Below, one piece after another: positions 2,370 through 55,348 of a stretch of 64,000 nt of DNA (within the stretch, counting starts at the first letter, position 1; each line of letters begins with the position of its first letter). A program made the translations under genes and the position numbers. The notes below the pieces were generated by a model that saw only the letters and a program-made list of their open reading frames with translations, had not been told where the DNA came from and ran no database searches. The stretch comes from Escherichia phage AV101. The stretch lies in the sequence record OQ973471.1; one strand, given 5' to 3'.

Positions 2370-2467
2370 GATATAGTTCCTGCTTTCAATTTGTGGCGAA
2401 TGCCAATGAATTACTGGGAAGTATAGGGGAGGGCGTTTCAAAAGTAAAGCCCCTCATTGAGGGGCTT
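2370..2467 (-). promoter_or_regulatory. Terminator - early promoter - conserved leader cassette (PeSL-like)
   Basis: Hairpin AAAGCCCCTC-AATG-GAGGGGCTTT, then TTTACT-17nt-TATACT, then TTGAAAGCAGGAACTATATC-ATG. Confidence 0.5.
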
Positions 2468-2708: not shown

Positions 2709-3812
2709 TTAAGCGAATTTGAGGCCATCGGATACCGAACCAGTCAGTACACCCATTAGATAATCAGGAGCTTCCGCTTCCTGCAACGCGTACTGCATTG
2801 CCTTATTATCTAGCCAGTCATTAATCCATGGGACTGGGTTCTCCTTGCGAGGTTCACCGGGATATGGGTGCCCGATAGCGCCCATCCGGTGGGTTGCCAG
2901 CCAGTCTACCATCTGATGAAGGATCTTGGCGTTCAGCCCCAGGATGGAACCGTCTTTGAATAGGTAGTTCGCCCACTCCTTCTCTTGATGAACCACGTCC
3001 AGGAACATCTGGGTCATCTCACCACGCAGTTCCTCACGGATGATTGCAAAGTCGGGGTCCATACCAGGCAGGCGGTTTAGCAGCGTCTGGGTCAGGATCA
3101 GGTGATCCTGCTCATCACGGGCGATCTGTCGAATGATTTTGGCATTGCCTTCCATTTTCTTCTGGAACTGTGTGAATGCCCAAGAGCATGCAAAGGACAC
3201 GTAGAAGCGGATGCCTTCCAGTGTGTTGGCAGCAAACAGAGCACGCCAGAATGCGCGTTTGGCATTCATCAGATCTTCTCGGGTGAAGATGCGTCCGGCC
3301 ATACGCATGCCACTGTACTGTACCATGTCATCGTAGTACACACTGATCTGGTGAGCGCAGTCCACGATCTCTGCAACATCCAGTACGTGGTCAAACACGA
3401 TACCTGGATCGTTCACAGTGTTGCGCAAAATGTGGGTGTACGATAAAGAGTGAATGGCTTCTTGGCGCGTCCATTCAAGGACAGCAAACTGCATTTCAGG
3501 GGTAGACGCCCATGGACCAAACGCCTCGAACGGAGCCGCACCCTGGATAGAGTCCAGCATGGTCTGGCGCTTCAGGTTGCTGAAGTAGACATGTTTCTCT
3601 GCTTCGTTCAGAGTAGCGAAGTCTGCCTTGTCCTTGGTGATGTCCACCTCTTCAGGACGCCAGAACTGGCTGAGACCTTTCTCATACCACTTCTGTACGA
3701 ATGGCCAGGCCACGACATCGTAACGCTGGATGCTCACTGGGTCACCGAAGAACGGTAGACCAGTGTTGTCCGAGCTTGGGTCGAATACGGAGAATTGTTT
3801 CTGTTCGCTCAT
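2709..3812 (-). CDS. nrdB: Ribonucleotide reductase small (beta) subunit
   Basis: 367 aa, ferritin-like RNR R2 pattern, adjacent to nrdA. Confidence 0.9.
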   Translation of the reverse strand: MSEQKQFSVFDPSSDNTGLPFFGDPVSIQRYDVVAWPFVQKWYEKGLSQFWRPEEVDITKDKADFATLNEAEKHVYFSNLKRQTMLDSIQGAAPFEAFGPWASTPEMQFAVLEWTRQEAIHSLSYTHILRNTVNDPGIVFDHVLDVAEIVDCAHQISVYYDDMVQYSGMRMAGRIFTREDLMNAKRAFWRALFAANTLEGIRFYVSFACSWAFTQFQKKMEGNAKIIRQIARDEQDHLILTQTLLNRLPGMDPDFAIIREELRGEMTQMFLDVVHQEKEWANYLFKDGSILGLNAKILHQMVDWLATHRMGAIGHPYPGEPRKENPVPWINDWLDNKAMQYALQEAEAPDYLMGVLTGSVSDGLKFA

Positions 3813-3882: not shown

Positions 3883-6165
3883 TTATACAACACAGCTGTC
3901 GCACTGAGTTTCCTCAGCCTGCTTCAGCTCTTCGTCTTCCTTGGCGTCCTTGTTTGTGTTGTAATATAGAGTCTTGCCACCCCACATATAGAACGACAGG
4001 ATATCCTGCATCATCTTGGCGCGAGGGATCTTGCTGTCAGGGTACTTCTCTGGGTCATACCACGTGTTGGTACTAATGGACTGGTCAACCCAGCGCTGGA
4101 TGACAGCAGCGGTCTTCAGGTACTCAATACAGTCCAGATCCCACTTGAGGTCATACATCGGTCCAAGGGTCTCAACGTCCGGGACGACCTGCTTATAAGT
4201 GCCGTCCTTGCTACCCTTGATGCTCACCAAGCCCTTCGGTGGCTCAATGCCGTTCGTTGCGTTGAGGACCTGTGAGGAGCTTTCGGTAGGGGCTACTGCC
4301 AGCAGGGTGGCGTTGCGGATACCATAGGTCTTCAGATTATCCTTCAACTCATCCCAATCCAGCCCATATGCCATCCCTTCCGGCTTCTTGCCATTTGGTA
4401 GGATATCAAGTGGAAGCGGCTGAAGGTCGGCGGTGACCTGCCCATTATTGTGGATGGTTCCGCGTTTACACGCCCCGAACTTCATAGCCAGACGGTTGGA
4501 TGCCTTGACCAGATAGAAGTGCAGGTGTGCCATCCACGCATCCAACATTTCAAGACCAGCTGGTGAGCCATAGCCCGTGAAGTTCTTGGCCAAGAAGTGA
4601 GCCACGTTCACGATACCAACACCCAGAGGACGATAGTCTTCAACAGCTTTACGAGCCTGAATCGCTGGATAGTCCTGATATTCCAACAGCATGTCCAGCG
4701 CAGACACCAACACGAACGCCACGTCTTCCATTTCGGTCGGGTCTTCGAATGCTGTCAGGTTGAAGGAAGCCAGGGTGCACAGAGCCACGCGCCCGTTTTC
4801 ATCGTTGTACTGCTCAAACTCACGGGTCGGCAGGGCGATTTCTAAACAAAGATTTGAAGAATAAATCGTGTCTAGGTTGAACGGGCTGTATTCATTCATG
4901 TGATCGACAAATGCGATGTAGATGCGGCCTGTGTCTGAACGCTGGTCTAACAGCATCTGGAACACCTCTTCTGCCTGCAACTTTTTAGCACGAACCAAAC
5001 CAGCATCAGCGGCCTTGATCATGTTCTCATACAGAGTACGGAACTTGTCAACGTCAGCGAAGTATGCTTCATACATTTCGCGGTTGTCTTTCGGGTCGAA
5101 CAGATACAGAGGCTGCTTGGCAACAAGGCGCTCAAACATCACGCGGTTGATCTGAATGCCATAGTCGATACGGCGTTCGCGGTTTTCTTCAGTACCACGG
5201 TTGTTCTTCAGAACAACGACGTCATCGAACTGGTAATGCCACAGAGGGATGTACGCTGTTGCTGCACCACCACGAATGCCGCCCTGAGAGCACGATTTGA
5301 GTGCCCCAGTGAGATACTTGATGAACGGGATCAGGCCTGTGTGAACCATCTCTCCGCCGCGAATAGGACTACCAATCCCACGGATTGCCCCGACGTCGAA
5401 GCCGATACCCGCACGTTTGGACACATAGTCAACGATGGTCTTGGCTGTTGCGTTGATAGAGTTCAGGGTGTCACCAGTTTTGATCAGAACACAAGAGCTG
5501 AACTGGCGGGTTGGTGTACGAACACCAGCCATGATAGGCGTTGGAAGACTGAACTTGCCTGTGCTGGCGTATTCATAGAACTTCTTGACCATATCCAGGC
5601 GGCTTTCTTTGTCCCAGTTGGAGAACAACGCCATGGCGATTGCCATGTACATGACCTGAGGAGTTTCGTAGAAGATCTTGCTATCCTTCTTGGAACGGTC
5701 ACGCAGCAGATACTTCTCTGTCAACTGGCCCATGGCCGCCCAGGTGAAGTTCTTGTCACGTTTGTGGTTGATGACATCGTTCAGCTCGTTGAACTCTTCA
5801 GTCGTGTAAAGGTCGAGGAACTCACGATCATACACGCGTTGCTTGATGTTCTTGACGAAGATATCCAGCAGGTGAGGTGGCTTGTACTGGCCATAGACAG
5901 CCTTGCGCAGATCATATGACTTCAGGCGAGCAGCCACATACTGGTAATTGGGTTTCTCTACGGAGATCAGTGAAGCCGCAGCCTGGATGAGGATATCCTG
6001 AATGCGATCTGTTCTCATGTTGTCGGTGAACTGAATCTTCGATGCAGCGATCACCTCTGACATTGATACGCCAACCAGTCCGTCACATGCGCGGTCTACG
6101 ACTTCGTGTGGTTTCTCAATATCAAAGGGGACAGAAGATCCGTCCCGCTTAATGACGTTAATCAT
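3883..6165 (-). CDS. nrdA: Ribonucleotide reductase large (alpha) subunit, class Ia with N-terminal ATP-cone
   Basis: 760 aa; N-terminal ATP-cone MINVIKRDGSSVPFDIEK, catalytic core motifs (NLCLEI, CTLAS). Confidence 0.9.
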   Translation of the reverse strand: MINVIKRDGSSVPFDIEKPHEVVDRACDGLVGVSMSEVIAASKIQFTDNMRTDRIQDILIQAAASLISVEKPNYQYVAARLKSYDLRKAVYGQYKPPHLLDIFVKNIKQRVYDREFLDLYTTEEFNELNDVINHKRDKNFTWAAMGQLTEKYLLRDRSKKDSKIFYETPQVMYMAIAMALFSNWDKESRLDMVKKFYEYASTGKFSLPTPIMAGVRTPTRQFSSCVLIKTGDTLNSINATAKTIVDYVSKRAGIGFDVGAIRGIGSPIRGGEMVHTGLIPFIKYLTGALKSCSQGGIRGGAATAYIPLWHYQFDDVVVLKNNRGTEENRERRIDYGIQINRVMFERLVAKQPLYLFDPKDNREMYEAYFADVDKFRTLYENMIKAADAGLVRAKKLQAEEVFQMLLDQRSDTGRIYIAFVDHMNEYSPFNLDTIYSSNLCLEIALPTREFEQYNDENGRVALCTLASFNLTAFEDPTEMEDVAFVLVSALDMLLEYQDYPAIQARKAVEDYRPLGVGIVNVAHFLAKNFTGYGSPAGLEMLDAWMAHLHFYLVKASNRLAMKFGACKRGTIHNNGQVTADLQPLPLDILPNGKKPEGMAYGLDWDELKDNLKTYGIRNATLLAVAPTESSSQVLNATNGIEPPKGLVSIKGSKDGTYKQVVPDVETLGPMYDLKWDLDCIEYLKTAAVIQRWVDQSISTNTWYDPEKYPDSKIPRAKMMQDILSFYMWGGKTLYYNTNKDAKEDEELKQAEETQCDSCVV

Positions 6166-6250
6166 AGCGATCCTCGGTTTGTGTTATAAGCAGGTTTTAT
6201 TATACGCCGCCCTCGTAGATTGAAGGCGGCGGGGAGTGTTGGTGAGTTAC

Positions 6251-7093
6251 TTAAATGTCGTACAGATCGTTGACTTCCAGCATCAGGCGGGTGAAGTCGC
6301 CGCGCCCGTTGCGGTCAGACTTGTCGAACTCGATGACACTGAACGGCTGAACCCATTCAGGGTACTCATCACCGACGCCAACACCATCGATCTTCAGGGT
6401 TCCGGCCTCCAGCTTGGCGTTGAAGTCGCGGAAGGAACTGACGTACTTTTCAAGGGCGCTGTCGCGCAGGCGCTTGTTGGACTGTTTGATGTCACCGTTG
6501 ACAAAGATGTAAGTCGAGTCGGATGCGCGGGTCAGTAGGTTCTTCAGCTGCTCCATATCACATTCCTGCGCTTCTTCAATGATCAGGAAGGTGTCGTCGA
6601 AGGTCATCCCCTTGATGGTCTCCAGATCCTGGATCTCAATGATCCGCTTCTCCCACAGATAGTTGAAGAAACCGTCGCTACCTGTGTCAGTCTTCAGCAC
6701 CTTCTTCAGCGTCTGAATCAGGGGCATCAGATATGGCATCAGCTTTTCGTATGTGTCGCCAGGGCGGAAGCCTGCAGTCTGGCCTGTTGGCAGCGGAGAG
6801 CGCGTGATGACGATCTTGCTGACCACTTTATCGATCAGGAGCTTGGCGGCGGCTGAGGCACCACAGTACGATTTACCTGTGCCTGCCGGACCGATTGCGA
6901 TGGTGAGGTTTTCTTCAAGAGCAGATTGATACGCGAGGTTCTGATTTTCTGAGAGGCCATTGAACGGAGCGATTCTGAAGTCACCTTTAGAGAACTTCAT
7001 CCAGTCATCTTCTTTCTGGATTGTCTCTTTCTTACGTGCTGACTTGGTCTTGCCCGCTGGCTTCTTACTTACAACTTTGGTGGCAGATTGCAT
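6251..7093 (-). CDS. phoH: PhoH-like ATPase
   Basis: 280 aa, Walker A GPAGTGKSY, PhoH family layout. Confidence 0.85.
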   Translation of the reverse strand: MQSATKVVSKKPAGKTKSARKKETIQKEDDWMKFSKGDFRIAPFNGLSENQNLAYQSALEENLTIAIGPAGTGKSYCGASAAAKLLIDKVVSKIVITRSPLPTGQTAGFRPGDTYEKLMPYLMPLIQTLKKVLKTDTGSDGFFNYLWEKRIIEIQDLETIKGMTFDDTFLIIEEAQECDMEQLKNLLTRASDSTYIFVNGDIKQSNKRLRDSALEKYVSSFRDFNAKLEAGTLKIDGVGVGDEYPEWVQPFSVIEFDKSDRNGRGDFTRLMLEVNDLYDI

Positions 7094-8664: not shown

Positions 8665-8830
8665 GATGTAATTCCTCATAATGTAGTTGGTTCATTTCAC
8701 TTTTCATTCGGCGGTGTGTTACCGCCCTATGTGAACTATAATAGTGTATCATTATTGAAGAGTAAAGTCTTTTTCAATAAATTTTTAAATAATTTTGAAG
8801 TATTTTAAAAGGCCTCATTCGACGAGGCCT
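8665..8830 (-). promoter_or_regulatory. Terminator plus sigma70-like early promoter and structured leader
   Basis: Hairpin AGGCCTC..GAGGCCT with T-run; TTTACT-17nt-TATTAT; leader hairpin GGCGGT..ACCGCC. Confidence 0.45.
8811..8830 (-). terminator. Rho-independent terminator
   Basis: AGGCCTC-GTCGAAT-GAGGCCT followed by TTTTAAAAT. Confidence 0.55.
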
Positions 8831-9065: not shown

Positions 9066-10120
9066 CGCACTTTCCTCAGTTCAGCGAATTGTAATGATGC
9101 GGCCATACCTTGGTAAACGTTCTTGGCGATCAGCTTCAGGAGGTCTTGTATGGACATGTTGCCCTTTGATGGCATGACCATGTCGTTGATATCCTTCCAA
9201 GGAACGTCTGGTGGGAACAGTACAACCTTGACACCTTTATCTATCATCTTCTGAATACCGTCACACACCTGCGGGTTCCGGTACTGATTATCAGGGATAT
9301 AAATGTCGCCCTTCACGCTCAGTAGATCAGCATCGGCCGATGCAAGACAGTTGGGTAGGAACAGGCTGTCAATCGGACCTTCCACAACCAGCTTGGTCTT
9401 GTGAATGTTCACCCGGTCTTCACCATACACCTTAGTGTCTTCATCCTTGGGCTTGACTGTTGCGTAGCGCAGTGTCGCACTCTTGTCGAATGCACGCCCC
9501 TGAACGATCTTCATGCGACCATCCTGAGTCCAGAACGGAATCACCAGCCGCTCATCGTCGGGGATCTTCAGCTGCTTCTCAGGGTTCGTTTCGAACTGGA
9601 GTAGATCCTGGCGGAAGTGCTGTGTGTAATACAGGAGGGTCAAAGTGCTCTCCGGCAGTCCACGCCACTGTACGTACTGTCGAGCCTTATGGTCAGGCGG
9701 TAATAGATCAAGCCGTAGCATATTGCCGAGGAGGCTCTCGTCGCGTTTCGCCGCCACTGAGCCAATACGGGCGGTCTGTGTTAGCTTTGGTAACGGCTTC
9801 AGGGAAGGAAGTGGTCTGCCCGACGTATCACCCAGCAGACGGAACTTCTCCATGTTGTACTCTGTTGAGAGGCGTTCGTCGAACTTCTTCAGCCAGAACT
9901 CAAATGACCAGCCATTCATCTGGTTGCAGTTATGGCACTTGAACCGGAAGCAGTCATGATCCCGATCATAGAAGAAGTATCCACGGCGCTTGTTAGCAGA
10001 CTTCGTGGAGTCACCGCACAGAGGGCAACGGAAGTTCGCAACAGAACCCACGCGCTCCCACTTGAACTTGTCAAGGCGGGGCGACAAGTTGTTGATAAAT
10101 TGCTCGTCAAGAAATTTCAT
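9062..10120 (-). CDS. gp61: DNA primase, T4 gp61-like
   Basis: 352 aa, N-terminal zinc ribbon CPLCGDS...CHNC, length close to T4 gp61. Confidence 0.75.
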   Translation of the reverse strand: MKFLDEQFINNLSPRLDKFKWERVGSVANFRCPLCGDSTKSANKRRGYFFYDRDHDCFRFKCHNCNQMNGWSFEFWLKKFDERLSTEYNMEKFRLLGDTSGRPLPSLKPLPKLTQTARIGSVAAKRDESLLGNMLRLDLLPPDHKARQYVQWRGLPESTLTLLYYTQHFRQDLLQFETNPEKQLKIPDDERLVIPFWTQDGRMKIVQGRAFDKSATLRYATVKPKDEDTKVYGEDRVNIHKTKLVVEGPIDSLFLPNCLASADADLLSVKGDIYIPDNQYRNPQVCDGIQKMIDKGVKVVLFPPDVPWKDINDMVMPSKGNMSIQDLLKLIAKNVYQGMAASLQFAELRKVR

Positions 10121-10391
10121 TTACCCACCCGGTACGGAAAAGGATAGATTTATACTCTTCCACCATGTCCTGGTCGTAATCAGTTTGACGGGAATACGAT
10201 TGGGCTTCAGCACAATCAGCGCCAAGTTCCACAGAAGCCATAGCGGCTTGCATGTTCAATTTATTTTTGTACTCAGAAACCATCCCATGTCTTTCCAAAT
10301 ATTCACTTGCCTGGATAAATCGTTTTTCTCTGGCGAACATTAGACCATAGTTGATTTCTGAAAACTCTCTGTTGTATGCTTTTAATGACAT
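10107..10391 (-). CDS. Hypothetical protein
   Basis: 94 aa ORF upstream of primase. Confidence 0.35.
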   Translation of the reverse strand: MSLKAYNREFSEINYGLMFAREKRFIQASEYLERHGMVSEYKNKLNMQAAMASVELGADCAEAQSYSRQTDYDQDMVEEYKSILFRTGWVNEIS

Positions 10392-15283: not shown

Positions 15284-15378
15284 GATATAGTTCCTGCTTT
15301 TCAAGTTGGTGTCGTACTGCTTATGGAATGAAGTATAGGGAAGGATATTGAAGAAGTAAAGGGGCGTTTGCCCCTTTT
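15284..15378 (-). promoter_or_regulatory. Terminator - early promoter - conserved leader cassette (PeSL-like)
   Basis: Hairpin AAAGGGGC-AAAC-GCCCCTTT, TTTACT-17nt-TATACT, TTGAAAAGCAGGAACTATATC-ATG. Confidence 0.5.
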
Positions 15379-28406: not shown

Positions 28407-28485
28407 GGTGATTCTCCTTATTTCATTGGATGAAATGATAGGCGGCTCACCATGTTGAGTAAAGGGATTCAATAAACTATCGTAT

Positions 28486-30644: not shown

Positions 30645-30766
30645 GTTATAATCTTACCTTTCAACCCGGTGAACCCATCGTTCGCCAGTTATTGAATAAT
30701 AGGACATTCCTTAGAGGAAGTAAACCCCTAAAAGTAAAAATCCCCAACGTTTGTTGGGGACTTCTG

Positions 30767-37673: not shown

Positions 37674-39692
37674 TTAGAACACAACTTTCACAGTGCGGTT
37701 GAACGAACCGCTCACCTTCACGAACACGTGGTTGCGTTGGGTGGTAGAGAAGCCCAGACCGGACAGCTGCTCAGTGCTTGGCTGTACTTTAATCTTACCA
37801 CCTAACATTTCAAAAACCTTGCGGTGTTTATCAAGTTCCGGCTTCAGATATTCGTTATAGAAACCACGGGTGCCGACAGGGTTAGCACAACCTTCCAGGA
37901 TGAAGAACACGTGCTTGTTGCCAGTCTGCTCGCCGTCCCAATGGTTTGGTGAGTTCAGAACCAGCTGTACCTTCTGGAAGACGGAGGTCTTGATGCCCCA
38001 GATTTCCTGAGAGCGAGCGTCGTCTTTCAGGGTAGAACGGATGTCTACCACTTGTCCAGCGCGGACATCAATCACAACAGCCAGAGTGCGATCTTTGTGC
38101 TTCAGGCCAGGATGCGAAAAACGCTTGGTCTGGCCTTTGTATTCAACTTCGATTTCGAAGCCCATATCACAGGTTTCACGCTGGCTGAAGTTAGTGACAT
38201 AGAACTCGTACAGACCATCACGCAGCTTGCGTTCATCGCTGAAGAAGATGTTCTCCACCGGACGGCGGTTTGGATCAATGCCGTCCATACCGTTCATGTC
38301 GATGTCTAGAGTTGCGCCAGTTGTCGAACGACGGTTGTGATAATACACGTGGTTGTGAAGAGGATCGTTCAGGCTCAGATCCAGGTCGTCGTTGTTATGC
38401 CAAGCCAGTGACACACGGAGGAAGCTGTCGACATTGCCGCCTGCGGTCTTCACGCGCTCTTTGATGGAGTCGGCCACTTCGCCATTGTACGACCAGCTGA
38501 AGCCGTTGTTCCACTTGAACAGGTTAGGAGCGCCTGCGGTGGCCGGAGCGATCAGGGACATCAGGTTGCCAATGTGAGAGTTTTCGACCAGCACTTCCAG
38601 GGAATGCGCCTTTGGCAACACGTTGGTCAGGAAGTCGTCGATCGTGATCTCTTCAACCTTGTCCAGGGACTTGGTCGGAGTCTTCACTTCAGACGCCAGC
38701 TGAGCAAACGGGTCCATCTTCTTCTGAGCTGCTAGGTCGGCGAACAGAACGTTGTTGATGGTCAGATCGTCATACACGGCATAACGGCGACCCAGTGAAT
38801 CAGTCAGACCCAGCGCTTCGACTTCTTTCTGCGCGTTTTCAATCATCGACTTCGTGACCAGCGCGGTTGGGCGCTTGTAGTTCGTCGGAGCGACTTTGGC
38901 TTCAAAGGACTTCACGGCGGTTTCCAGATCCCGACCTTCATTGAGGTCTACCAGCAGAGAGCCAATCACGGTATTACGAATGCCGTGAGGGGTATGACCG
39001 TTTGCACGGTAGCCAGTGCGCCAAGCCCACAGAGCGCGTTTCTCTTCTGCAGTTTGTTCGTACAGGGTCTTGTTCACCACGAACGCCTGCACTGCCGCTT
39101 TGTGCTCTTCACCGCGATACAGAGAATTCTGGTCAATCAATTCAAGAACGATTTCAGCCGATTCCAGAGACAGTTCACGCAGGCCGCGCTCAAACACTTC
39201 AATCGCCTGGCGGATTTCACCCTTCTTAGAAGCGATGGTATCTGCCCGCAGAACATAGCTGCTCAGCAGGTCGGTGTGGAAGTGGTTGTAGGTGCGGACA
39301 ATACCGTCTTTCATTTCGTGATTCGACCCAACACCAACTTTCTTGGTGTCGTTGAAGTACACATCGACGATTGCGTGCTGCTTAACATATGCTGACAGCG
39401 CCGCAGCGACAACGTCGTATTCGTTACCCAGCTGAATGTTATCCCAGATAGAGATCACGTTCAGGTCGGAGTCGATGGTGACCACACCGCCGATATTACG
39501 GATGAATTGTTTACAGCAGGTACAGTCGTGTTCGGTACGCTCACGATAAAGCGGGTTAGTGCCAGCAGGGAAAGAAGACAGATACAGATCCCACAGAGCA
39601 TCTTTATCGATGTTGGTCATGAACAGACCAGTTGCTGACATGGCCAGCACATTATTGTTTACGGCTACTGCGAAGGGCTTAAATTCTGACAT
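37674..39692 (-). CDS. Large hypothetical early protein (672 aa)
   Basis: Long ORF preceded by a hairpin and the conserved leader; no family recognised. Confidence 0.5.
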   Translation of the reverse strand: MSEFKPFAVAVNNNVLAMSATGLFMTNIDKDALWDLYLSSFPAGTNPLYRERTEHDCTCCKQFIRNIGGVVTIDSDLNVISIWDNIQLGNEYDVVAAALSAYVKQHAIVDVYFNDTKKVGVGSNHEMKDGIVRTYNHFHTDLLSSYVLRADTIASKKGEIRQAIEVFERGLRELSLESAEIVLELIDQNSLYRGEEHKAAVQAFVVNKTLYEQTAEEKRALWAWRTGYRANGHTPHGIRNTVIGSLLVDLNEGRDLETAVKSFEAKVAPTNYKRPTALVTKSMIENAQKEVEALGLTDSLGRRYAVYDDLTINNVLFADLAAQKKMDPFAQLASEVKTPTKSLDKVEEITIDDFLTNVLPKAHSLEVLVENSHIGNLMSLIAPATAGAPNLFKWNNGFSWSYNGEVADSIKERVKTAGGNVDSFLRVSLAWHNNDDLDLSLNDPLHNHVYYHNRRSTTGATLDIDMNGMDGIDPNRRPVENIFFSDERKLRDGLYEFYVTNFSQRETCDMGFEIEVEYKGQTKRFSHPGLKHKDRTLAVVIDVRAGQVVDIRSTLKDDARSQEIWGIKTSVFQKVQLVLNSPNHWDGEQTGNKHVFFILEGCANPVGTRGFYNEYLKPELDKHRKVFEMLGGKIKVQPSTEQLSGLGFSTTQRNHVFVKVSGSFNRTVKVVF

Positions 39693-39811
39693 GATGTAGT
39701 CTTCCTGTTTCAGTTCAAATGTGCGCCCCGTTTGCCAGGGCGCTTCGTTTAAGTGAGGTCAATAATACGTTGAAAAAAGTTATTGAAGAATGAAGTAAAG
39801 GGAATCTTTAT
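39693..39811 (-). promoter_or_regulatory. AT-rich upstream region, stem-loop and conserved leader upstream of the 672-aa gene (no clean -35/-10 promoter)
   Basis: TTTACTTCATTCTTCAATAAC block, hairpin GCGCCC..GGGCGC, leader GAAACAGGAAGACTACATC-ATG; -35/-10 spacing does not fit. Confidence 0.4.
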
Positions 39812-40036
39812 TCAGACGATCTTACCACCGTCACAAGGCCGAGTATCACCGGAGTTGTATGCCAGCATCCCCTGCATCAACAAACGTCTTGGCCCAGAAA
39901 CTGATTTCTGTTTCCTCAACGTACTGCAGAACCGAGTAGTGCCTGGGTAAGGAGTGTACACGAGACGACCTTGCATACGAGCTTCCAGTAGGAATTCATC
40001 TGTGGCTTTGCGTAACTTGAATAATTTCCAGCTCAT
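39812..40036 (-). CDS. Hypothetical small protein downstream of HNH endonuclease
   Basis: 74 aa, ATGA overlap with HNH gene stop. Confidence 0.3.
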   Translation of the reverse strand: MSWKLFKLRKATDEFLLEARMQGRLVYTPYPGTTRFCSTLRKQKSVSGPRRLLMQGMLAYNSGDTRPCDGGKIV

Positions 40037-40962
40037 TTTTCACCCTTGTATCTTTTTAACCATTTGACGCATTTTAATGGTTCCCACCCTTTATTGAAAC
40101 GTTCGATAATGCTGTTTGTCGCATTAAAAGCCTTCAAATCCTTTGTTCCGTACACATGCATGAGGGCTTCCGCTCTTTTCATCGTCTTCAAAGATTGCAT
40201 AAGCAAATCAGCTTTTGACCAATACACATCATTTTCGGGGTTCCATTTCGCTTTCTCCCAAGGCAACTTCACTAACATACCTTTCTGGGCGTTTTCTTTC
40301 TGTTTGGCTCGTTGTTCCGGTGTGAAAGAATTGGTTAAGTCCTTCCCATAATTGGGATTGAGTTTCCCGAGTTTTGCTTGTCTAGAACGCTCCGAAAATT
40401 GCTTCAAATCTGTATTGGCGCGACGCCGCTCTAAAACCTGCCTTTTATATTCAGGGTCAGAAGCCATTCTTTCATGGATTTTCATCAATCCTTTGGTAAT
40501 TTTCTTGACTTGCTCTGGAGTTCTCTTATATCCATATTGGGGGTTATTCTTTCCTCTCCTTCCGTACATTGGGTTGTCTTTACCCACAAACCGAGAAACC
40601 CCTTTCCATTGTAAAGATAGTTGTTCGCTGAATTTAATTCTGAAACTTTCATATAAATGAGAATTAAACCGAATCCCCGATTTATTTCTTCTTCCCCCCT
40701 TTCTCATAGCCACCACAGCATACACCATTCTCGTGTTTGGGAAAGCCAATGCCAAGCACAAATGCACAAGATAATGTTGCCTGCCTGTTAATCGAACCAA
40801 ATTGTTCTTATCTTTAAAATATTCAGGGAACATGCTCTTGGGAAGGATGTGGTGTAATTCAGTGTAGTCACCATCAGAATATTTGAAAGATTGAACCATC
40901 CTCAAATACTTCTTGATGAAATGCGGTTTACCGCCTTTAGAAACCAACAATTCATAAAACAT
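40033..40962 (-). CDS. HNH homing endonuclease with NUMOD-like repeats
   Basis: ELHHILPKS...NLVRLTGRQHYLVH HNH motif; basic Lys/Arg-rich repeats; AT-rich relative to neighbours; RBS in hairpin. Confidence 0.75.
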   Translation of the reverse strand: MFYELLVSKGGKPHFIKKYLRMVQSFKYSDGDYTELHHILPKSMFPEYFKDKNNLVRLTGRQHYLVHLCLALAFPNTRMVYAVVAMRKGGRRNKSGIRFNSHLYESFRIKFSEQLSLQWKGVSRFVGKDNPMYGRRGKNNPQYGYKRTPEQVKKITKGLMKIHERMASDPEYKRQVLERRRANTDLKQFSERSRQAKLGKLNPNYGKDLTNSFTPEQRAKQKENAQKGMLVKLPWEKAKWNPENDVYWSKADLLMQSLKTMKRAEALMHVYGTKDLKAFNATNSIIERFNKGWEPLKCVKWLKRYKGEK

Positions 40963-40993
40963 AACAGGAACTCCAAAAATGAAAGTTCCTGTT
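40963..40993 (-). promoter_or_regulatory. Stem-loop partly sequestering the RBS of the HNH endonuclease gene
   Basis: AACAGGAACT-loop-AGTTCCTGTT 10-bp stem with GGAG at loop/stem junction, directly 5' of ATG 40962. Confidence 0.5.
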
Positions 40994-41023
40994 ATAATAT
41001 ACTTTGTTAACTCACAAAGTAAG

Positions 41024-42223
41024 TTACTTTTTAAATAAATTTAGCAGGTTTTTAGAACCAGATGTCGTCGCTTTAGGTTGTCCTTCCCCATCGTAACCAA
41101 CCTTCCCGCGCGGTTTTTTGCCTTGGTTGACGGCTTCTACACAACGGGTATATTTCGACAATTCACAAAAGTGGTTCTCTAATTGTTGAACATTCATACA
41201 CTGATCCCAAGGCTCTTCGGCCGACCAAAATTCTTCCCTGTTATACCCAAGAGGACCATAAACTGCGTCCTGATTATCCCGTAGCCAGAAGATGCATTCT
41301 TCGTGGGTCATACCGTCTTTGTTCAGGAACATCAGGTCGATGCCTGCGCGACAGCCTGGTCCAGCAACCGTGAAGTGGTTCTCGCTGAAAGGATATCCAG
41401 GAATGTACGTGAAATCAACCCAGATCTGATAGGCCAGGAATGGACCAAGCCCTTCGATGTCGTCATACATGCGCTGGTATACTTCCAGAGGAGTACCAAG
41501 GCGCAGCAAGTCATGGAAATAGTTTGGATACTTGTTGACGAATGCCTTCAGAGAACGGATAACACGCATCGGCATGTATGGTTCCCATCCCTCGATGGTA
41601 TATTCACCAGGATTCTCTTCGACCAGCTTTTTGGCGACCTTGTAGTCCATCTCGTCCACAATACCCTGGCCAACGCGATACACTTTCACCATCATCCCAC
41701 CGAAGCACTGCTCCTTGTGGTTGACAACCATCTCAGGGAAAGCCAGGCATTGCTTCAGGCCGCCCGTGTTGAAGGCATTGGTGAATACCTTACCACCGTC
41801 GGCCTCGAACTTCTGAAGTCGTTCGCGGGTTGCATCGAGGTTGATCTCGGCGAATTCTTTGATCGTCATCGCGCCGCCGATAGCCTGGATTGGATCCCAG
41901 AGGTTGAACATGCGGAACATCACGCAGTTGAACATCTTGTCGGCCATACCCAGAGCATCGTTGTTGACGATGTTGTTGATCAGGTTGAGAGACTGTCTGT
42001 CGTGCTCTCTCCGGACGTTACAGAATTTAACCTGGCGTAGTATGGGATTATCAGTCCAAGGAGCAGGAAGGCGCTGGACGTCCTTCTTGACGTGGATCTG
42101 ATAACGATCGCGCATCCATTCGTAAGACAGGCTGGTATGGGTCGGACTGAGAACCGGTTTGGCCGACTTTATCTTTTCTTCACGGACACCGCAGTACGGG
42201 ACGTCCAGGGCTTTATCTTTCAT
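41024..42223 (-). CDS. Hypothetical protein (399 aa), possible nucleotide/DNA-metabolism enzyme
   Basis: Long ORF between HNH gene and MazG-like gene; no motif recognised. Confidence 0.45.
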   Translation of the reverse strand: MKDKALDVPYCGVREEKIKSAKPVLSPTHTSLSYEWMRDRYQIHVKKDVQRLPAPWTDNPILRQVKFCNVRREHDRQSLNLINNIVNNDALGMADKMFNCVMFRMFNLWDPIQAIGGAMTIKEFAEINLDATRERLQKFEADGGKVFTNAFNTGGLKQCLAFPEMVVNHKEQCFGGMMVKVYRVGQGIVDEMDYKVAKKLVEENPGEYTIEGWEPYMPMRVIRSLKAFVNKYPNYFHDLLRLGTPLEVYQRMYDDIEGLGPFLAYQIWVDFTYIPGYPFSENHFTVAGPGCRAGIDLMFLNKDGMTHEECIFWLRDNQDAVYGPLGYNREEFWSAEEPWDQCMNVQQLENHFCELSKYTRCVEAVNQGKKPRGKVGYDGEGQPKATTSGSKNLLNLFKK

Positions 42224-42291
42224 GGTATCCTCTTAGAATACGAAAACAGAGGCCATTATAGCCTCTGTTGTTTAGTGAATAACCGTATATC

Positions 42292-43164
42292 TTAATCGAT
42301 ACGGGTCAGTTGGGTGATAGATGATTGCACTGGGCTGGCCACATAGATACGGACGTTGGCTTTCCATTCACCCCAGATCAACGGCAGAGTTGGGAAGTTG
42401 TCTTCATTGAAAACAAACACGGGAATGTAGCTCTCGACTGTTTCGCCAGAGAACGCCTGAAAGCCCATCTTGGTGTATCCCATGATCTCGTCAATAAAAT
42501 CGAACGGAGCGAAGGCAACACCAGCGTGTTCGTTAGAACCGAGCTGGCCTGGAATGGCCGTGCCCGTCAGAATGATTTCGGTGATCTGGCGCTTAGGCTC
42601 GGTGGTCAACATATCAGAGAAGTCAGGCTCTTTGAAGGTTGCCATGTTCTTCAGGAACTTGCCAGCCGGGTACTCTTTGCCGTCGACAGTGATGGTGTCC
42701 ACCACTTTGATGCACGCCTGAGGGAATTCCCCTTCGATGCGTAGACTTTCGCGTGGGAATCCTTTGTTATAGTAATACTCCAGCGCTGGAACAACTTCAC
42801 CTTCATTGCGAACGAACTTGCTCATGTTAGAGGCATACACGCGTTGTAGGCATTCGTCACCGTCGAAACCAGCAATATGAGCCACACCGTCGTTGACAGT
42901 GGTGATGTCGCCCTGGGCATCCATGATCTGGCGCATAATGTCTTTGATGTCGACAACAACGGGTTCTTTCAGGACTCGCGGAGATGCAGTGAACTCAATT
43001 TTCACCTCGTGGTCGAAATACACCGCTTCCAGCAGTTCACGGGTTTCTTCCAGCACCAGTTTCGCCTGATTGCGGATCTTACCAAAGTCAGGCGATGTGA
43101 CGTCGCCCTTTGCATTACCGAAAGCCAGATTCAGATTCACGTTCTTAGAAAATGTAGTTGTCAT
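42292..43164 (-). CDS. Hypothetical protein with possible MazG-like NTP pyrophosphohydrolase N-terminal domain
   Basis: LEETRELLEA ... AQGDITTV ... DECLQRV pattern resembling MazG/dCTPase fold; weak. Confidence 0.35.
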   Translation of the reverse strand: MTTTFSKNVNLNLAFGNAKGDVTSPDFGKIRNQAKLVLEETRELLEAVYFDHEVKIEFTASPRVLKEPVVVDIKDIMRQIMDAQGDITTVNDGVAHIAGFDGDECLQRVYASNMSKFVRNEGEVVPALEYYYNKGFPRESLRIEGEFPQACIKVVDTITVDGKEYPAGKFLKNMATFKEPDFSDMLTTEPKRQITEIILTGTAIPGQLGSNEHAGVAFAPFDFIDEIMGYTKMGFQAFSGETVESYIPVFVFNEDNFPTLPLIWGEWKANVRIYVASPVQSSITQLTRID

Positions 43165-43180
43165 GATTTAGCGACTCCAG

Positions 43181-43645
43181 TTATTCGCTTTTTGCCTTCG
43201 TAGGCCGGATGATGTATTTTGGAACCAGCTTCCATTCAGGAACCTGATCGTGTTTAACCACTTTAATGCGAGACATATCGGCTGCTTCGGTGACCTGCTC
43301 AGGATGAATGACCTTCACCATGTTCCACTGCTCCAGCAGCTTGATGATTCGGTTCATCCTCAGGACATCTTCGCGGTTAAATCCGTTGTAATGCCCGTCC
43401 AGCATAAATAGATGCTTAAAGTGGACGATATAATACTTGCCGCACTTATGAAGAATATGGCAAGTTTGATACAGAGTATTCGGCTCTTGGCGCGTGTTTA
43501 CCCCAATTCGACTCAGTGTTTCCTTGATCCCCAGGAATATACCTGGCCGATCTTGGTTCAATTGAACTTCAACCATACAATCAACGATGCTGGCCTCATC
43601 GTTGACTGCTGAAATATTCAATATGTCTAGCGTATTACGCGCCAT
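43181..43645 (-). CDS. regA: Translational repressor RegA
   Basis: KETLSRIGV...LYQTCHILHKCGKYYIVHFK...EWKLVPKYIIR matches T4 RegA. Confidence 0.8.
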   Translation of the reverse strand: MARNTLDILNISAVNDEASIVDCMVEVQLNQDRPGIFLGIKETLSRIGVNTRQEPNTLYQTCHILHKCGKYYIVHFKHLFMLDGHYNGFNREDVLRMNRIIKLLEQWNMVKVIHPEQVTEAADMSRIKVVKHDQVPEWKLVPKYIIRPTKAKSE

Positions 43646-45842: not shown

Positions 45843-46184
45843 TTGTATGTATCCTCAAAATATAGTGGGGGTTCAAGTCATGTTTGACGCAATCTAGTAT
45901 CGCTGTGTTTTGCTTATAGAACAAGTGGCAAATTGCGCTACGCGTTATTAATAAATGCCTTCGGCATTTATGGACTTTATTAAAGATAATAATCTTTATT
46001 AATCCTATTCGCTTCGCTCATAAAACAAATACTCGTTGTTCGCTAACGCTCACAACTCGTATAATACCACGCCATTGTTCAACAAGAAAGCAGTTTTTAT
46101 TCAACAGCAAAAATAATTTATTTGGTCTAAACATGCACGCGAAATAATATGTATGTCATGTTAACCAACACACGAGAGTAATAT
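45843..46184. promoter_or_regulatory. AT-rich divergent intergenic region with direct and inverted repeats
   Basis: 342 bp between divergent gp45 and plus-strand ORF; TTGTTC-18nt-TATAAT on plus strand; CTTTATTAA direct repeats 20 bp apart; AAATGCC-TTCG-GCATTT hairpin. Confidence 0.4.
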
Positions 46185-52677: not shown

Positions 52678-52760
52678 GATATATTTCCTTCATTTCAGAG
52701 TCAGTGTTGTGCTGCTTATGGAATGAAGTATACGGGGTTTATTGAAGAAGTAAACCCCGT
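52678..52760 (-). promoter_or_regulatory. Early promoter - stem-loop - conserved leader cassette, near-identical copy of 15284-15378
   Basis: Shares TTTACTTCTTCAATA and TATACTTCATTCCATAAGCAG with the 15284-15378 cassette. Confidence 0.5.
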
Positions 52761-53484: not shown

Positions 53485-53808
53485 TCAAAGAATGATGTGT
53501 TCGTCGATATCGGACTGCGTTGCAATCTCCCAGCGGACGATGTTCTCGGTTGTGATGAAATCACGGTTCAGGTGAGAGGCTGGTACATACACCATCGTAT
53601 TGACCATGAAGTAGCGCTGCTCATTGTTCCAGGAGTCAACATAAGCCTCAATAAGGCACACTTCGATCACTTCGCCTTTCGGATTCTTCACAGTCTTTTT
53701 CAGATACATGACACAGCCCTCGGTAGTAGACGGGGCAATAATACCTCTCACCCCGTTATTGAAATGTTCTTTTAGTTCAAGACATATTTGATCAGTCCAC
53801 AATTCCAA
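53485..53808 (-). CDS. Hypothetical protein
   Basis: 107 aa ORF. Confidence 0.4.
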   Translation of the reverse strand: MELWTDQICLELKEHFNNGVRGIIAPSTTEGCVMYLKKTVKNPKGEVIEVCLIEAYVDSWNNEQRYFMVNTMVYVPASHLNRDFITTENIVRWEIATQSDIDEHIIL

Positions 53809-55244
53809 ATCCTGACCAGCCCGGCTTCGGTTGCTAACTGGCTTTCTGTTTTGCCTTCTACGTCATACCCCATGCGAGCAAATGAACCTTTTCTGAAACC
53901 GAATTTGTGCTCACGCATAAATGTGCCAGGCTTGTGATATTTGTAGTCTGGCTTCTGTACTTCCTCTTCTACGAATCCGTGGGATAGGTAAATGTTGGAC
54001 AACCTGCTTGCAACACACCTATCCCCAAAGGAATAGATTTTGGTGTCGGCAAATTTTCTTCTGAAGTGTGAAAGAAGTTTACTGAATGCCCCGTGGCAAT
54101 CATTAGAGGCAAATCTGACTAATTCCAGGCCATCTTTCCTTTTAGTGAATAGCATCACGGCTTGTATGACCCCACTCTTGTCAATTAACGATAAATGGTG
54201 GGTAGAAGAAACGGAACCTTGTATGTGGTGGTTGTCTAAAAACTCCCTCAAGCCGCTTATATTCCCCCAAACGACTTTGTGTTGGCGAGCATATGACGCA
54301 GGCGTTTTAATGCCAAGTTTAGCTTTCAGAAGAGATTTGACCACTTCCTGTTTCTCAACCCATTCATCTTCCCAGATGTGAATCAACTGGATACCCTGAG
54401 ATTCACATATTTCAGTCTTTTCCAGGTGATAATGTTTCTCTTTAAAAACTTCTGAATGCCAGTACAGGCCATTAAATTCAATCGCCAATTTGTGTTCAGG
54501 GCAATAGATATCCAGTTGTTTACCGGATAATATACTGTAATCAGAAACAGTGTTTACAACTCCCATTGAGGTGAGAAACTCGGATATTTCCTTTTCATAA
54601 GAAGATTTCTTGTTCCTGATAGAACCATTGCTGAACAACGCACGTTTTAGTATGTTCGAGTTTTTCATAGGGTTGTCAACACCATAACGTTCTTGTAACG
54701 TTGCCAACGCCTTCTCCCTCACACCAGGTAATTGTAGTGTGGAGCAGCTTCCGTATTTGGATATATTCGAAGTCTCTATGACTTTCCGACCAATCCCACC
54801 TTTACACATAGAAACCTGATAACATTCTTCAGAACAATATGTTCTGTAATCTTTATTATTGATGTAAAAGTTGGTTTCCTTGGAACACACCGGGCATATT
54901 TTCACGGCTCTATTGTACAGCCAAGCTGTGACTTTACAAGCCAAATCTTGTAGGGTGTTGTGGGTATTGGCGAACACTAAAAGGTCTACATTGATGTGCT
55001 TCATAAGCAGTTCAGATTTGCATTTTTGGATATCCAATTTGTTGTTCTTGGTAAACATATATTTGTAGAAAAATTGGCGATATGATTCCTCGTCAGATAA
55101 TTCATTCACTGCTTCAAGGAAACCTTCCGGGAGGTTCTTTAGGGTGTTCGATGCGAAGGTCTTGCAAGCATCTGAACAAAATTTCTTATCTTTCCTGGAT
55201 GCTTTGAACTGTTCATGGCAGACACTACAGATTACCTGATACAT
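53772..55244 (-). CDS. Putative free-standing endonuclease: N-terminal zinc ribbons plus C-terminal Vsr/PD-(D/E)xK-like nuclease domain
   Basis: CSVC...CSDAC and CPVC...CSEEC ribbons; LAIEFNGLYWHSE ... IHIWEDEW nuclease-like motif; GGAGGAG RBS; own promoter after gp23 terminator. Confidence 0.5.
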   Translation of the reverse strand: MYQVICSVCHEQFKASRKDKKFCSDACKTFASNTLKNLPEGFLEAVNELSDEESYRQFFYKYMFTKNNKLDIQKCKSELLMKHINVDLLVFANTHNTLQDLACKVTAWLYNRAVKICPVCSKETNFYINNKDYRTYCSEECYQVSMCKGGIGRKVIETSNISKYGSCSTLQLPGVREKALATLQERYGVDNPMKNSNILKRALFSNGSIRNKKSSYEKEISEFLTSMGVVNTVSDYSILSGKQLDIYCPEHKLAIEFNGLYWHSEVFKEKHYHLEKTEICESQGIQLIHIWEDEWVEKQEVVKSLLKAKLGIKTPASYARQHKVVWGNISGLREFLDNHHIQGSVSSTHHLSLIDKSGVIQAVMLFTKRKDGLELVRFASNDCHGAFSKLLSHFRRKFADTKIYSFGDRCVASRLSNIYLSHGFVEEEVQKPDYKYHKPGTFMREHKFGFRKGSFARMGYDVEGKTESQLATEAGLVRIWNCGLIKYVLN

Positions 55245-55300
55245 AATTATTCTCCTCCATATGGTATCTAGTATAACCTGTTCGATAATATGAACAAATA

Positions 55301-55322
55301 AAAACCCCGCCGAAGCGGGGTT
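55301..55322 (-). terminator. Rho-independent terminator downstream of major capsid gene
   Basis: AAACCCCGC-TTCG-GCGGGGTTT followed by TTTTATTTGTT on minus strand. Confidence 0.7.
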
Positions 55323-55348
55323 TGTCAGGGTTAAGGACAACTGTTCTA

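Follow-up and report, generated by a model that had tools for sequence, protein, structure and literature searches.

A candidate homing endonuclease cassette with a predicted start-codon hairpin, adjoining the 5-hmdU DNA kinase gene of an Ackermannviridae phage

Genes and domains at the locus

The window analysed here is a 64,000-nucleotide stretch of Escherichia phage AV101 (OQ973471.1), and all features of the locus described below lie on its minus strand. In this Ackermannviridae phage, a free-standing HNH/NUMOD3 endonuclease gene (40033..40962; 309 aa) is flanked by a 5-hmdU DNA kinase gene (41024..42223; PF18723, 2.6e-79) and a gene encoding a 672-aa protein (DUF8224 / phrog_1735). A small gene, orf74 (39812..40036; 74 aa; phrog_19743), overlaps the HNH stop codon by ATGA. 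An earlier note on this DNA had placed the HNH gene at these positions, with a coupled 74-aa ORF, and had called the flanking genes conserved; both descriptions stand. All locus configurations found among related phages converge downstream on a shared junction, CTGAATAAAGAT (39804..39815), which holds alternative stop codons: TGA for orf74 and, in other genomes, TAA for the kinase or the HNH gene. Comparison of the whole window revealed no HNH paralog.

The HNH ORF matches phrog_655 ('homing endonuclease', 7e-61) and phrog_12434 ('HNH endonuclease', 3e-17), and its protein has 5187 relatives at E<=1e-3. The catalytic motif spans residues 35-67 (40762..40860; E35-x-H37-H38-ILP41 ... N54 ... H63 ... 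H67). The invariant H37, H38, N54, H63 and H67 are all intact, and the catalytic His, the conserved Asn and the metal-ligand His that define the beta-beta-alpha-metal site of HNH (His-Me finger) endonucleases are present. A NUMOD3 DNA-binding motif (PF07460) lies at residues 136-155 (40498..40557) and scores 21.9 bits against a Pfam cut-off of 20.4. NUMOD3 and a helical C-terminal domain are the DNA-binding modules found in homing enzymes, and the protein has both. Among 58 homologs, Pfam HNH is matched by 15 and NUMOD3 (PF07460) by 45. A profile built on the HNH family matches 1i3j, the DNA-binding domain of I-TevI (E 0.0012), and also the HNH domain of McrA; a PDB search with the single sequence returned chance matches only.

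The GC content of the HNH gene (39.8%) is the lowest among the 64 ORFs of the window (ORF mean 49.6%, sd 2.9; window 49.7%), which suggests a foreign origin. The PHROG and Pfam matches and this atypical composition bear out the earlier description of an AT-rich gene of the HNH/NUMOD type.

The spacer and the hairpin over the endonuclease start

A spacer of 61 nt separates the kinase stop codon from the HNH start codon, and its conservation exceeds that of the flanking coding DNA in all four divergent loci compared. The spacer and the start codon contribute to an RNA hairpin (40961..40995) with a 5' arm at 40984-40995 (AUAACAGGAACU), a loop at 40973-40983 and a 3' arm at 40961-40972 (AGUUCCUGUUAU). 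The arms pair perfectly over 12 bp, and the minimum free energy fold lengthens the stem to about 15 pairs (-17.8 kcal/mol for the full hairpin). The GGAG Shine-Dalgarno (SD) sequence of the HNH gene (40971-40974) falls wholly inside the sequestered region. In the predicted ensemble, the probability of being unpaired is at most 0.02 for all four SD bases and 0.07-0.11 for the A and U of the AUG. The 10-bp stem partly occluding the GGAG that had been described earlier is thus real as a stem, but its size and extent were underestimated: it comprises 12-15 bp and takes in all of the SD together with the first two bases of the AUG. Because the SD and the AU of the AUG are paired, translation would be strongly repressed, as judged from the predicted structure and its comparative conservation.

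The structure is exceptional in the window. The 101-nt hairpin region has a z of -5.1, and none of 200 shuffles folds as well. Among the 64 ORF starts, that of the HNH gene is the least accessible (0.13) and has the lowest local folding energy (-19.0; mean -7.65, sd 4.5). The window has a second endonuclease gene (53772-55340), at whose start no significant structure was found. The only Rfam match is a chance, sub-threshold match to a miRNA hairpin.

The hairpin is kept in nine distinct upstream sequences, down to an HNH protein identity of 59-60%. Changes in the stem include two double changes (A-U to G-C and A-U to U-A), both compensatory and both in L031 alone, plus two G.U transitions. Across the aligned hairpins, which represent only four distinct arm variants, pairing is preserved in 95.8% of cells vs 35-50% with a slid register; the observed covariation is reached by 31 of 500 shuffles. 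Much of the conservation could come from recent spread. No comparable hairpin was found on inspection of the sequences upstream of a GIY-YIG chimera in Dickeya phages and of more distant HNH homologs located elsewhere (Croc_ER14, A221, selz); these genes start one or two bases past the upstream stop codon or overlap it. The hairpin therefore characterises this cassette rather than the protein family. Another hairpin, with a stem of 8 bp just past the kinase stop codon (UACUUUGU/ACAAAGUA) is specific to the window; it was rejected as a conserved element because a C>G/T change breaks its pairing in relatives.

Directly past the kinase stop codon lies a 17-mer, CTTACTTTGTGAGTTAA (41007..41023), which is identical in seven of the nine distinct upstream sequences and differs by one base in L031 and in the L036-type sequence. 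It is a candidate -35/UP region or protein-binding site. A candidate promoter (40996..41023) begins in it, with a -35 box CTTACT (41018-41023), a 16-nt spacer and a -10 box TATATT (40996-41001); its predicted start, at about 40988-40990, lies within the 5' arm of the hairpin. This promoter is a one-base variant of a recurrent motif, TTTACT-N15-18-TAnnnT, which has six matches, all on the minus strand, vs 0.71 expected. Its -35 box matches TTGACA at three of six positions, its -10 box differs among relatives (TATAAA, TATAGT, TATATC), and a generic sigma-70 scan flagged neither this candidate nor any other minus-strand promoter in the spacer. RNAs starting there would retain a hairpin of -8.8 kcal/mol vs -17.8, and the probability that their SD is unpaired is still about 0.02. 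Since the SD remains paired in such transcripts, relief of repression would be partial. The T4 late promoter TATAAATA has two matches in the whole window, both elsewhere and none near the HNH gene. The late-promoter consensus for this phage family was not known as of 2011 (PMC3184105). A comparison of the spacer with the empty site, in search of the operator/homing-site likeness seen with I-TevI, gave nothing above shuffles and hence no hint of an operator for autoregulation.

Distribution of the cassette and its linked kinase allele

The flanks of the locus match 281 GenBank phage records, and the 5' region of the cassette (kinase tail plus spacer as query) is found in 42 of these, always at the same site. 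The insertion site is identical in Kuttervirus, Aglimvirinae and uncultured relatives. Empty sites occur in L006-L009, L012 and L019, and the junctions never vary. This sporadic presence at one fixed site, in a free-standing and AT-rich gene, is consistent with the mobile endonuclease proposed in the earlier note, which had named presence or absence among related genomes as a check. The 5' region of the cassette is 90-98% identical where flanking genes are only about 72-88% identical, and each of the 42 GenBank records has a full-length HNH ORF, with catalytic residues intact in every copy.

Presence of the HNH gene is associated with the type of kinase C-terminus in every locus read. A cassette-linked tail, ...GEGQPKATTSGSKNLLNLFKK* (41024..41087), forms the upstream edge of the variable segment and occurs in all HNH loci whose tail was read (L001, L002, L004, L005, L031, L033). 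The six empty loci have the tail ...EYKKRCDEVVLKRGSVNLLDRLKKPE* instead, and their alignments end at 41087/41088. This empty-type tail is found, at a query coverage of at least 80%, in 68 records. That the cassette carries its own last ~20 kinase codons had been missed by the earlier note.

The nearly identical, HNH-less locus L019 delimits the exchanged DNA. Its flanks are 96-100% identical to those of the window, and the difference is confined to exactly 42211-39815. Mismatches start at 42211, the kinase gene is 70-76% identical, and the divergent patch of 2.4 kb comprises the kinase gene and the insert. Among relatives, the kinase gene is a mosaic of blocks with 66-99% identity. A patch of this kind is the footprint expected of homing with co-conversion, and the kinase gene is probably the region of both the endonuclease target and co-conversion. 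A candidate target is the ~90 nt of the empty alleles that encode their kinase tail and that are replaced in HNH+ genomes; the target region is deduced only from the sequence that differs between HNH+ and HNH- genomes.

The distribution of orf74 follows other rules. In all searches made, it matches only Ackermannviridae proteins. No Pfam match was obtained, only four clusters were found among 5.8 billion proteins, and the AF2 model (pLDDT 52.8) is unusable. The module extends from about 39816 to 40048, and an ATGA overlap couples translation of orf74 to that of its upstream neighbour, whatever gene this is. The earlier note had counted the 74-aa ORF as part of the cassette, and one could suppose that the two genes form a single two-gene mobile element in which orf74 is an accessory factor. 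The coupling of their translation by the ATGA overlap and their joint presence in about 30 Salmonella phage records and the closest metagenomic relatives would fit such an arrangement. We consider it very improbable, as each gene occurs without the other: 30 Klebsiella (Taipeivirus) records and Yersinia phage CAU_YEP3 have orf74 coupled to the kinase gene and no HNH gene, and HNH occurs without orf74 in RPN242, SS3 and L033. Moreover, an orf74 homolog in Serratia phage phiMAM1 resides at another locus, between the ligase and gp59 genes, the indel boundaries at 40048/39819 are clean, and the GC content of orf74 is genome-like (48.9%) vs 39.8% for HNH. By these comparisons, orf74 is a separate resident module that was merely re-coupled to the HNH stop codon. 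Its annotation as 'homing endonuclease' in some records (e.g. CAU_YEP3) is to be corrected to that of a separate orphan gene.

A model for the cassette and its relation to known systems

It is likely that 40033-41087 is a homing endonuclease cassette at the 3' end of the kinase gene of an Aglimvirinae-like phage, ahead of the stretch that leads to the next gene, and that it is spread by homing and repressed by the hairpin. The HNH gene itself, as a candidate identified by sequence, appears to be an ordinary selfish homing endonuclease gene. The cassette would consist of its own last ~20 kinase codons, the 61-nt regulatory spacer and the 309-aa enzyme, in which an HNH nuclease is predicted at the N-terminus, a DNA-binding module at the C-terminus and a NUMOD3 linker between them. 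In a mixed infection, the enzyme would cut the kinase gene of a relative that lacks HNH, within or close to its 3' end. The HNH-carrying genome would then be the template for recombinational repair, by which the cassette and kinase gene stretches of variable length are copied. We propose that this homing with co-conversion accounts for the unusual mosaicism of the kinase gene among phages that are otherwise nearly identical. In kinase read-through RNA, the 12-15 bp hairpin would pair the whole SD and the AU of the AUG. The candidate promoter, whose -10 box lies over the base of the hairpin, would give transcripts without about half of the 5' arm; these would free the AUG and partly relieve repression. 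Past the stem, UUUUAU may add weak termination.

This last element allows a different reading of the hairpin, namely that it is mainly an intrinsic terminator of the kinase transcription unit and that occlusion of the ribosome binding site is a by-product. The run UUUUAU (40954..40959; HNH codons 2-3) follows directly 3' of the stem and is the reason why the hairpin also scores as terminator-like (40996..40960 plus tail; 15 pairs followed by UUUUAUGAAU in the scan). T4 mobE and segF have terminators in their 5' coding ends (PMC2988022), and orf74 and HNH are at the 3' end of a transcription unit. The details of the stem make this reading quite improbable. Only four of 15 pairs are G-C and the base of the stem is all A-U, whereas terminators at other places in the window are GC-rich; the U-run is short and interrupted; L031 lacks the U-run and yet keeps the hairpin, compensatory changes included; and the start codon is always exactly where the 3' arm ends. 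The hairpin and UUUUAU may nevertheless form a weak terminator-like configuration.

The locus could also be a recombination hot spot between two conserved blocks, with an HNH protein that is inactive or serves a purpose other than homing, such as exclusion of co-infecting relatives. Exchange is indeed bounded by conserved sequence on both sides: in the kinase gene by the codons for KPRGKVGYDG, and at the other end by the CTGAATAAAGAT...TTTACTTC junction. The inserts found in this gap are unrelated to one another (orf74, a zinc-ribbon ORF of 135 aa, small ORFs that together make up 1.35 kb, and an ORF of 120 aa), and each insert type has its own kinase tail. We regard this explanation as unlikely. 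An inactive protein does not sit well with full-length ORFs and intact catalytic residues throughout, the cassette is conserved across genera more than its flanks, and the divergence between near-identical genomes is centred on the HNH gene. As for exclusion, phage endonucleases can combine it with homing.

A homing cassette as described here resembles T4 mobE, segB and I-TevI. According to published accounts (PMC2988022; PMC2790892), mobE of Aeh1 and T4 is likewise a free-standing HNH gene between conserved nucleotide-metabolism genes (nrdA and nrdB) and is expressed at least partly from upstream transcription. [quoted passage not shown] Unlike mobE, the present gene resides in Ackermannviridae with 5-hmdU-derived hypermodified DNA and next to the 5-hmdU DNA kinase gene as host gene, and a single predicted hairpin joins sequestration of the SD and AUG with a U-run. 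The HNH domain is about 30-40% identical to homologs of T4-like phages, a likeness at the level of the family only.

Hairpins over the ribosome binding site are known for T4 I-TevI, I-TevII, I-TevIII and segB and for Aeh1 mobE (PMC2988022), and the predicted hairpin fits this type, as the earlier note had suggested in ascribing to the gene control of the T4 homing endonuclease kind. In long read-through transcripts of I-TevI, I-TevII, I-TevIII and segB, the consensus SD, ~8 nt from the AUG, is masked by a stable hairpin, and a promoter at the hairpin gives shorter RNAs that cannot form the full structure (PMC2988022); the candidate promoter here would be similarly placed. The T4 internal promoter is a defined late promoter, TATAAATA, whereas the one here is a sigma-70-like candidate only and, unlike in T4, its transcripts would have lost about half of the 5' arm and still have a paired SD. 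The T4 I-Tev and SegB enzymes are GIY-YIG or intron-encoded, unlike the HNH gene here. The HNH protein shares the layout of the I-HmuI type (Pfam HNH, HNH_3, NUMOD3, I-HmuI_NUMOD-like), i.e. a beta-beta-alpha-metal nuclease, NUMOD3 repeats and a helical DNA-binding tail. I-HmuI is intron-encoded, unlike the free-standing gene here, and nicks one strand; its NUMOD-like domain is matched by three of 58 HNH family members, and no direct sequence match of the HNH protein to the solved I-HmuI structure was obtained.

Ackermannviridae are widely used as therapeutic and biocontrol phages and have hypermodified DNA. A limited keyword search of papers and reviews found apparently no earlier description of such a cassette in this family. 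The findings leave current concepts unchanged; the predicted control would bring Ackermannviridae into the scheme of tight repression known from free-standing homing endonucleases of T4. The configurations of the locus (empty, orf74 only, HNH only, HNH plus orf74, and the GIY-YIG chimera) provide a natural series for tests of homing and co-conversion.

The chimera is related to the HNH gene through a C-terminal DNA-binding module (40048..40388) common to the HNH protein and to GIY-YIG F-LimVI of Dickeya phages. F-LimVI is ORF114 of Dickeya phage LIMEstone1, an I-TevI-like GIY-YIG free-standing endonuclease (PMC3296691). It occupies the same locus, directly past the kinase gene, and shares the module of ~115 residues at about 93% amino acid identity (HNH residues 194-305 vs P0009) and 95% nucleotide identity (40388-40048 vs L010, LIMEstone-type). 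The nuclease heads differ: P0009 and P0008 have a SegE-type GIY-YIG N-terminus (Pfam 20.0 and 22.2 bits, below the gathering cut-off of 25), in contrast to the HNH head here. The F-LimVI gene also has no spacer or hairpin, and its ATG lies one base past the kinase stop codon. It is possible, though on present evidence doubtful, that the locus reflects very recent modular evolution, in which phages of Salmonella and Escherichia have an HNH head and those of Dickeya a GIY-YIG head, together with endonuclease-driven exchange of kinase alleles. With one DNA-binding module under either head, both enzymes would home to the same site in the kinase gene. If so, the same site would be attacked by different cleavage chemistry, under control of a hairpin with embedded promoter in one case and direct translational coupling in the other. 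Thymidine hypermodification is initiated by the enzyme whose alleles the endonuclease would then exchange, and through this exchange a selfish element would shape the anti-restriction DNA chemistry of the phage.

The HNH/NUMOD3 protein and its neighbourhood

The window is from a phage of the family Ackermannviridae, and every gene near the locus is read from the minus strand. In order, these genes encode a regA-like translational repressor (43181-43645), a MazG-like pyrophosphatase (42292-43164), the 5-hmdU DNA kinase (41024-42223; PF18723, 2.6e-79), a 309-aa ORF (40033-40962), a 74-aa ORF (orf74, 39812-40036), and a 672-aa DUF8224 protein (37674-39692). The ORFs and coordinates of the earlier note match these exactly. 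A 4-kb query around the locus finds matches in 281 GenBank records of phages with Salmonella, Klebsiella, Escherichia, Dickeya, or other hosts; Escherichia phage vB_EcoM-RPN242 (Aglimvirinae) is the best overall match.

The 309-aa protein matches PHROG 655 ('homing endonuclease', 7e-61), while PHROG 12434 ('HNH endonuclease') covers residues 16-90 and the Pfam NUMOD3 match is slightly over the cut-off. An exhaustive HMMER search found 5187 relatives at E <= 1e-3. Across an alignment of 58 relatives, H37, H38, P41, H63, and H67 never vary and E35 and N54 hardly do; these residues make up the HNH motif, which is intact in the window protein. The family profile finds the HNH domain of McrA and, in the DNA-binding domain of I-TevI, its NUMOD3 part; Pfam HNH is reached by 15 and NUMOD3 by 45 of the 58 family members. 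A strand-strand-helix core is present in the AF2 model (pLDDT 88.5). The assignment of the product as an HNH/NUMOD3 endonuclease is accepted, its activity being predicted. The gene is AT-rich, as had been noticed from the sequence: its GC content of 39.8% is the lowest among the 64 window ORFs (mean 49.6%, sd 2.9).

The window has a second AT-rich endonuclease gene (53772-55340, minus strand; 522 aa, 40.7% GC), which matches phrog_3339 'homing endonuclease' and phrog_559 'HNH endonuclease' and has no significant structure at its start (z -1.0). ORF 10107-10391 (minus strand, phrog_22447) has 40.4% GC, and a divergent intergenic region at 45843-46184, between genes of opposite orientation, has 34-40%. 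A GC-rich hairpin, GCGCCC...GGGCGC in the minus-strand RNA (39723-39743), lies in the leader of the 672-aa gene about 30 nt 5' of its start codon, and is kept in relatives though stem and loop sequences differ; it may be a terminator, an RNA processing site, or a leader structure. A terminator-like hairpin in the MazG/kinase intergenic region (42245-42269, minus strand) carries TATAAT in its loop (AACAGAGGCTATAATGGCCTCTGTT and TTCGTATTCT); the equivalent site in Klebsiella phage Menlow has a terminator annotation, and such 'hairpin plus TATAAT' layouts recur in further intergenic regions.

A hairpin over the HNH start

In the RNA of the spacer between the kinase and HNH genes (41023-40963), AUAACAGGAACU (40995-40984) forms 12 perfect pairs with AGUUCCUGUUAU (40972-40961), taking in the last two bases of GGAG (40974-40971) and the first two of AUG. 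Loop bases add further pairing, so that all four SD bases have an ensemble P(unpaired) <= 0.02. The hairpin proposed in the earlier note is thus real, but larger than the 10-bp stem described there, and the SD is paired throughout rather than partly hidden. The 101-nt hairpin region has z = -5.1 against shuffles. Of all 64 window ORF starts, the HNH start has the most stable fold (-19.0 kcal/mol; mean -7.65, sd 4.5) and the lowest accessibility, an extreme reached despite its AT-richness.

Nine distinct versions of the spacer were recovered, and the stem is identical in most of them. Phages Se-J and SS3 have U-A changed to U.G; in relative L034 (59% HNH protein identity) C-G and U-A are both changed to U.G. 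Relative L031 (60% HNH identity) retains the 12-position register; it has the double changes A-U to G-C and A-U to U-A, a single G.U pair, and a tandem G.A/A.G mismatch. Across versions, 95.8% of cells are paired in register versus 35-50% with the register slid. Comparative support for the pairing is moderate, because both compensatory events fall in one lineage and the covariation score is reached by 31 of 500 shuffles. In all four divergent loci the spacer shows higher conservation than either stretch of adjoining coding DNA; its initial 17 nt, CTTACTTTGTGAGTTAA, are identical in seven of nine versions and differ by one base in L031 and in the L036-type contigs. For HNH homologs that are more distant and lie at other loci, the upstream sequences inspected showed no comparable hairpin.

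RBS-sequestering hairpins form on read-through transcripts of T4 I-TevI, I-TevII, I-TevIII, and segB and of Aeh1 mobE; in T4-type elements, promoter placement gives shorter RNAs unable to form the hairpin, and mobE and segF have weak intrinsic terminators within their 5' ends (PMC2988022, review). By analogy, the hairpin in RNA from the kinase gene would silence HNH translation. We argue against a role mainly in transcription termination: the hairpin scores terminator-like and is followed directly by UUUUAU, but its stem base is all A-U, the U-run is lost in L031, and the position of the 3' arm is fixed on the start codon.

Few recognisable promoters are reported in CBA120-type phages, and the late-promoter consensus of the family was undefined as of 2011 (PMC3184105). 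The motif TTTACT-N15-18-TAnnnT, frequently TTTACTTCTTCAATA...TATACT, occurs six times in the window (2420-2448, 8738-8766, 15332-15360, 28435-28463, 30696-30724, and 52727-52754; all on the minus, coding strand) against 0.71 expected by shuffling, and none of 100 shuffles reaches six. This motif may represent a class of phage promoters. The T4 late promoter sequence TATAAATA is absent at the spacer/HNH locus. A one-base variant of the motif, CTTACT-N16-TATATT, lies in the spacer with its -10 box overlapping the stem base. A start about 7 nt past this box (40988-40990) would remove stem pairs 1-6. The computed effect of that loss is to weaken the hairpin from -17.8 to -8.8 kcal/mol, freeing the AUG with the SD still paired. 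Partial relief of repression on such transcripts is plausible but unproven.

Distribution, junctions, and a probable conversion footprint

Among 40 relatives sampled, the kinase-DUF8224 gap has at least seven configurations. It is empty (112-115 nt) in L006-L009, L012, and L019, and holds HNH plus orf74 in the window, PMBT18, Se-J, 'barely', CRW-SP2, and L036-L041, HNH only in RPN242, SS3, and L033, and orf74 only in Menlow and Yersinia CAU_YEP3. Dickeya phages have a GIY-YIG chimera, L011/L013 a 135-aa zinc-ribbon ORF (CxxC...CxxC; ~5206-5708), and L016 other small ORFs in a 1.35-kb block (5236-6585). The last two are unrelated inserts, as are a 120-aa ORF after HNH in L031 (4926-5288) and, in L035 (3927-4220), a long version of orf74 (97 aa). 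Each type of insert comes with its own kinase C-terminal tail. Some relatives have another HNH gene, distinct from this one, between MazG and the kinase (L009 ~3427-3576; L026 423-1052, annotated 'HNH homing endonuclease'; L035 1120-1749, PF01844), which places endonuclease genes on either side of the kinase.

The mobile cassette proposed earlier was checked for presence or absence in related genomes, and it is patchy at one fixed site. The HNH-type kinase tail, spacer, and gene 5' end occur in 42 GenBank records at 90-98% identity throughout, and the empty-type tail in 68 records with >= 80% query coverage. Since backbone genes have about 72-88% nucleotide identity among relatives, the cassette 5' region exceeds them in cross-genus conservation. 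All configurations converge downstream at CTGAATAAAGAT (39815-39804), which supplies the stop codon of the last ORF, whichever is present. Upstream, alignments to empty genomes end at 41087/41088 within the kinase, just 3' of the conserved KPRGKVGYDG codons. The kinase ends in ...GEGQPKATTSGSKNLLNLFKK and a stop in HNH loci whose tail was read, and in ...EYKKRCDEVVLKRGSVNLLDRLKKPE and a stop in every empty locus; therefore the cassette carries its own kinase C-terminus.

L019, an uncultured insert-less relative, matches the window at 96-100% identity on either side of one contiguous divergent patch, from 42211 (fourth kinase codon) to 39815, within which the kinase has just 70-76% identity. 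In other relatives the kinase is a mosaic of blocks of 66-99% identity. Contigs L036-L040 have flanks at 97-100% and an HNH gene at 83-94%, with the minimum at 40050-40400. From these alignments we infer that the patchy divergence is the expected trace of repeated double-strand-break repair with different donors.

By homing logic, a carrier genome must be without the target site. The ~90-nt kinase tail upstream of CTGAATAAAGAT, highly conserved across empty genomes, is the sole sequence of empty alleles replaced in carriers; it, or the adjacent kinase codons, is the candidate target. No operator-like copy of this tail was found in the spacer. Of the features that define homing endonucleases, sequence analysis shows the motif and the modules, a sporadic distribution at one fixed site, linkage to the flanks, and atypical composition. 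In architecture and predicted function, the element belongs with the mob-type free-standing HNH homing endonucleases, with predicted cleavage activity and predicted translational masking of the T4 kind. No description of the element or hairpin was found in the Ackermannviridae papers examined, which note only varying homing nuclease numbers.

A head swap with F-LimVI, and orf74 as a separate gene

The Dickeya phage endonuclease F-LimVI (PMC3296691) is located at the same site (LIMEstone-type L010, 5192-5966; L026, 2234-3019). Its N-terminus, MRQPYVYRV...GRFYYG, gives a below-threshold match to SegE GIY-YIG, and over its last ~115 residues F-LimVI shares about 93% identity with the window protein. 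The nucleotide identity of 40388-40048 is 95% with the Dickeya gene and only 83-85% with the HNH alleles carried by the nearest relatives of the window; thus the window gene is an HNH-type/F-LimVI-type recombinant. One DNA-binding module thus appears combined with two nuclease chemistries, HNH and GIY-YIG, which points to a recent exchange of nuclease domains between families of homing endonucleases. Unlike the window gene, F-LimVI has no spacer and no hairpin, and its ATG lies one base past the kinase stop. This head swap and the linkage to a hypermodification kinase gene are modest additions to a known kind of element.

The 74-aa ORF had been taken as part of the cassette, which is not borne out: each gene occurs without the other, and orf74 has a genome-like GC content of 48.9%. 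It is present in 64 records, 30 of them Klebsiella phages, and absent from the HNH carriers RPN242, SS3, and L033. In Menlow, the one Klebsiella phage examined, orf74 lies directly 3' of the kinase with the same ATGA overlap and no HNH gene; in the window its translation is coupled to the HNH stop codon. Its indel boundaries are clean (40048/39819), and the HNH gene was evidently inserted or exchanged upstream of a resident orf74. Identity to Menlow (93% aa, 83% nt) exceeds that of its flanks, and by this comparison orf74 is under coding constraint. Serratia phiMAM1 has a 49%-identical homolog between its ligase and gp59 genes. No family was detectable outside four clusters, and the structure model (pLDDT 52.8) is unusable. 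The CAU_YEP3 record labels its orf74 homolog (L027 2501-2719) 'homing endonuclease' and names the homolog of the 5-hmdU DNA kinase 'aGPT-Pplase clade 1'; a 'homing endonuclease' feature also covers the orf74 match in Salmonella phage 'barely'. These labels are probably annotation carry-overs worth correcting.
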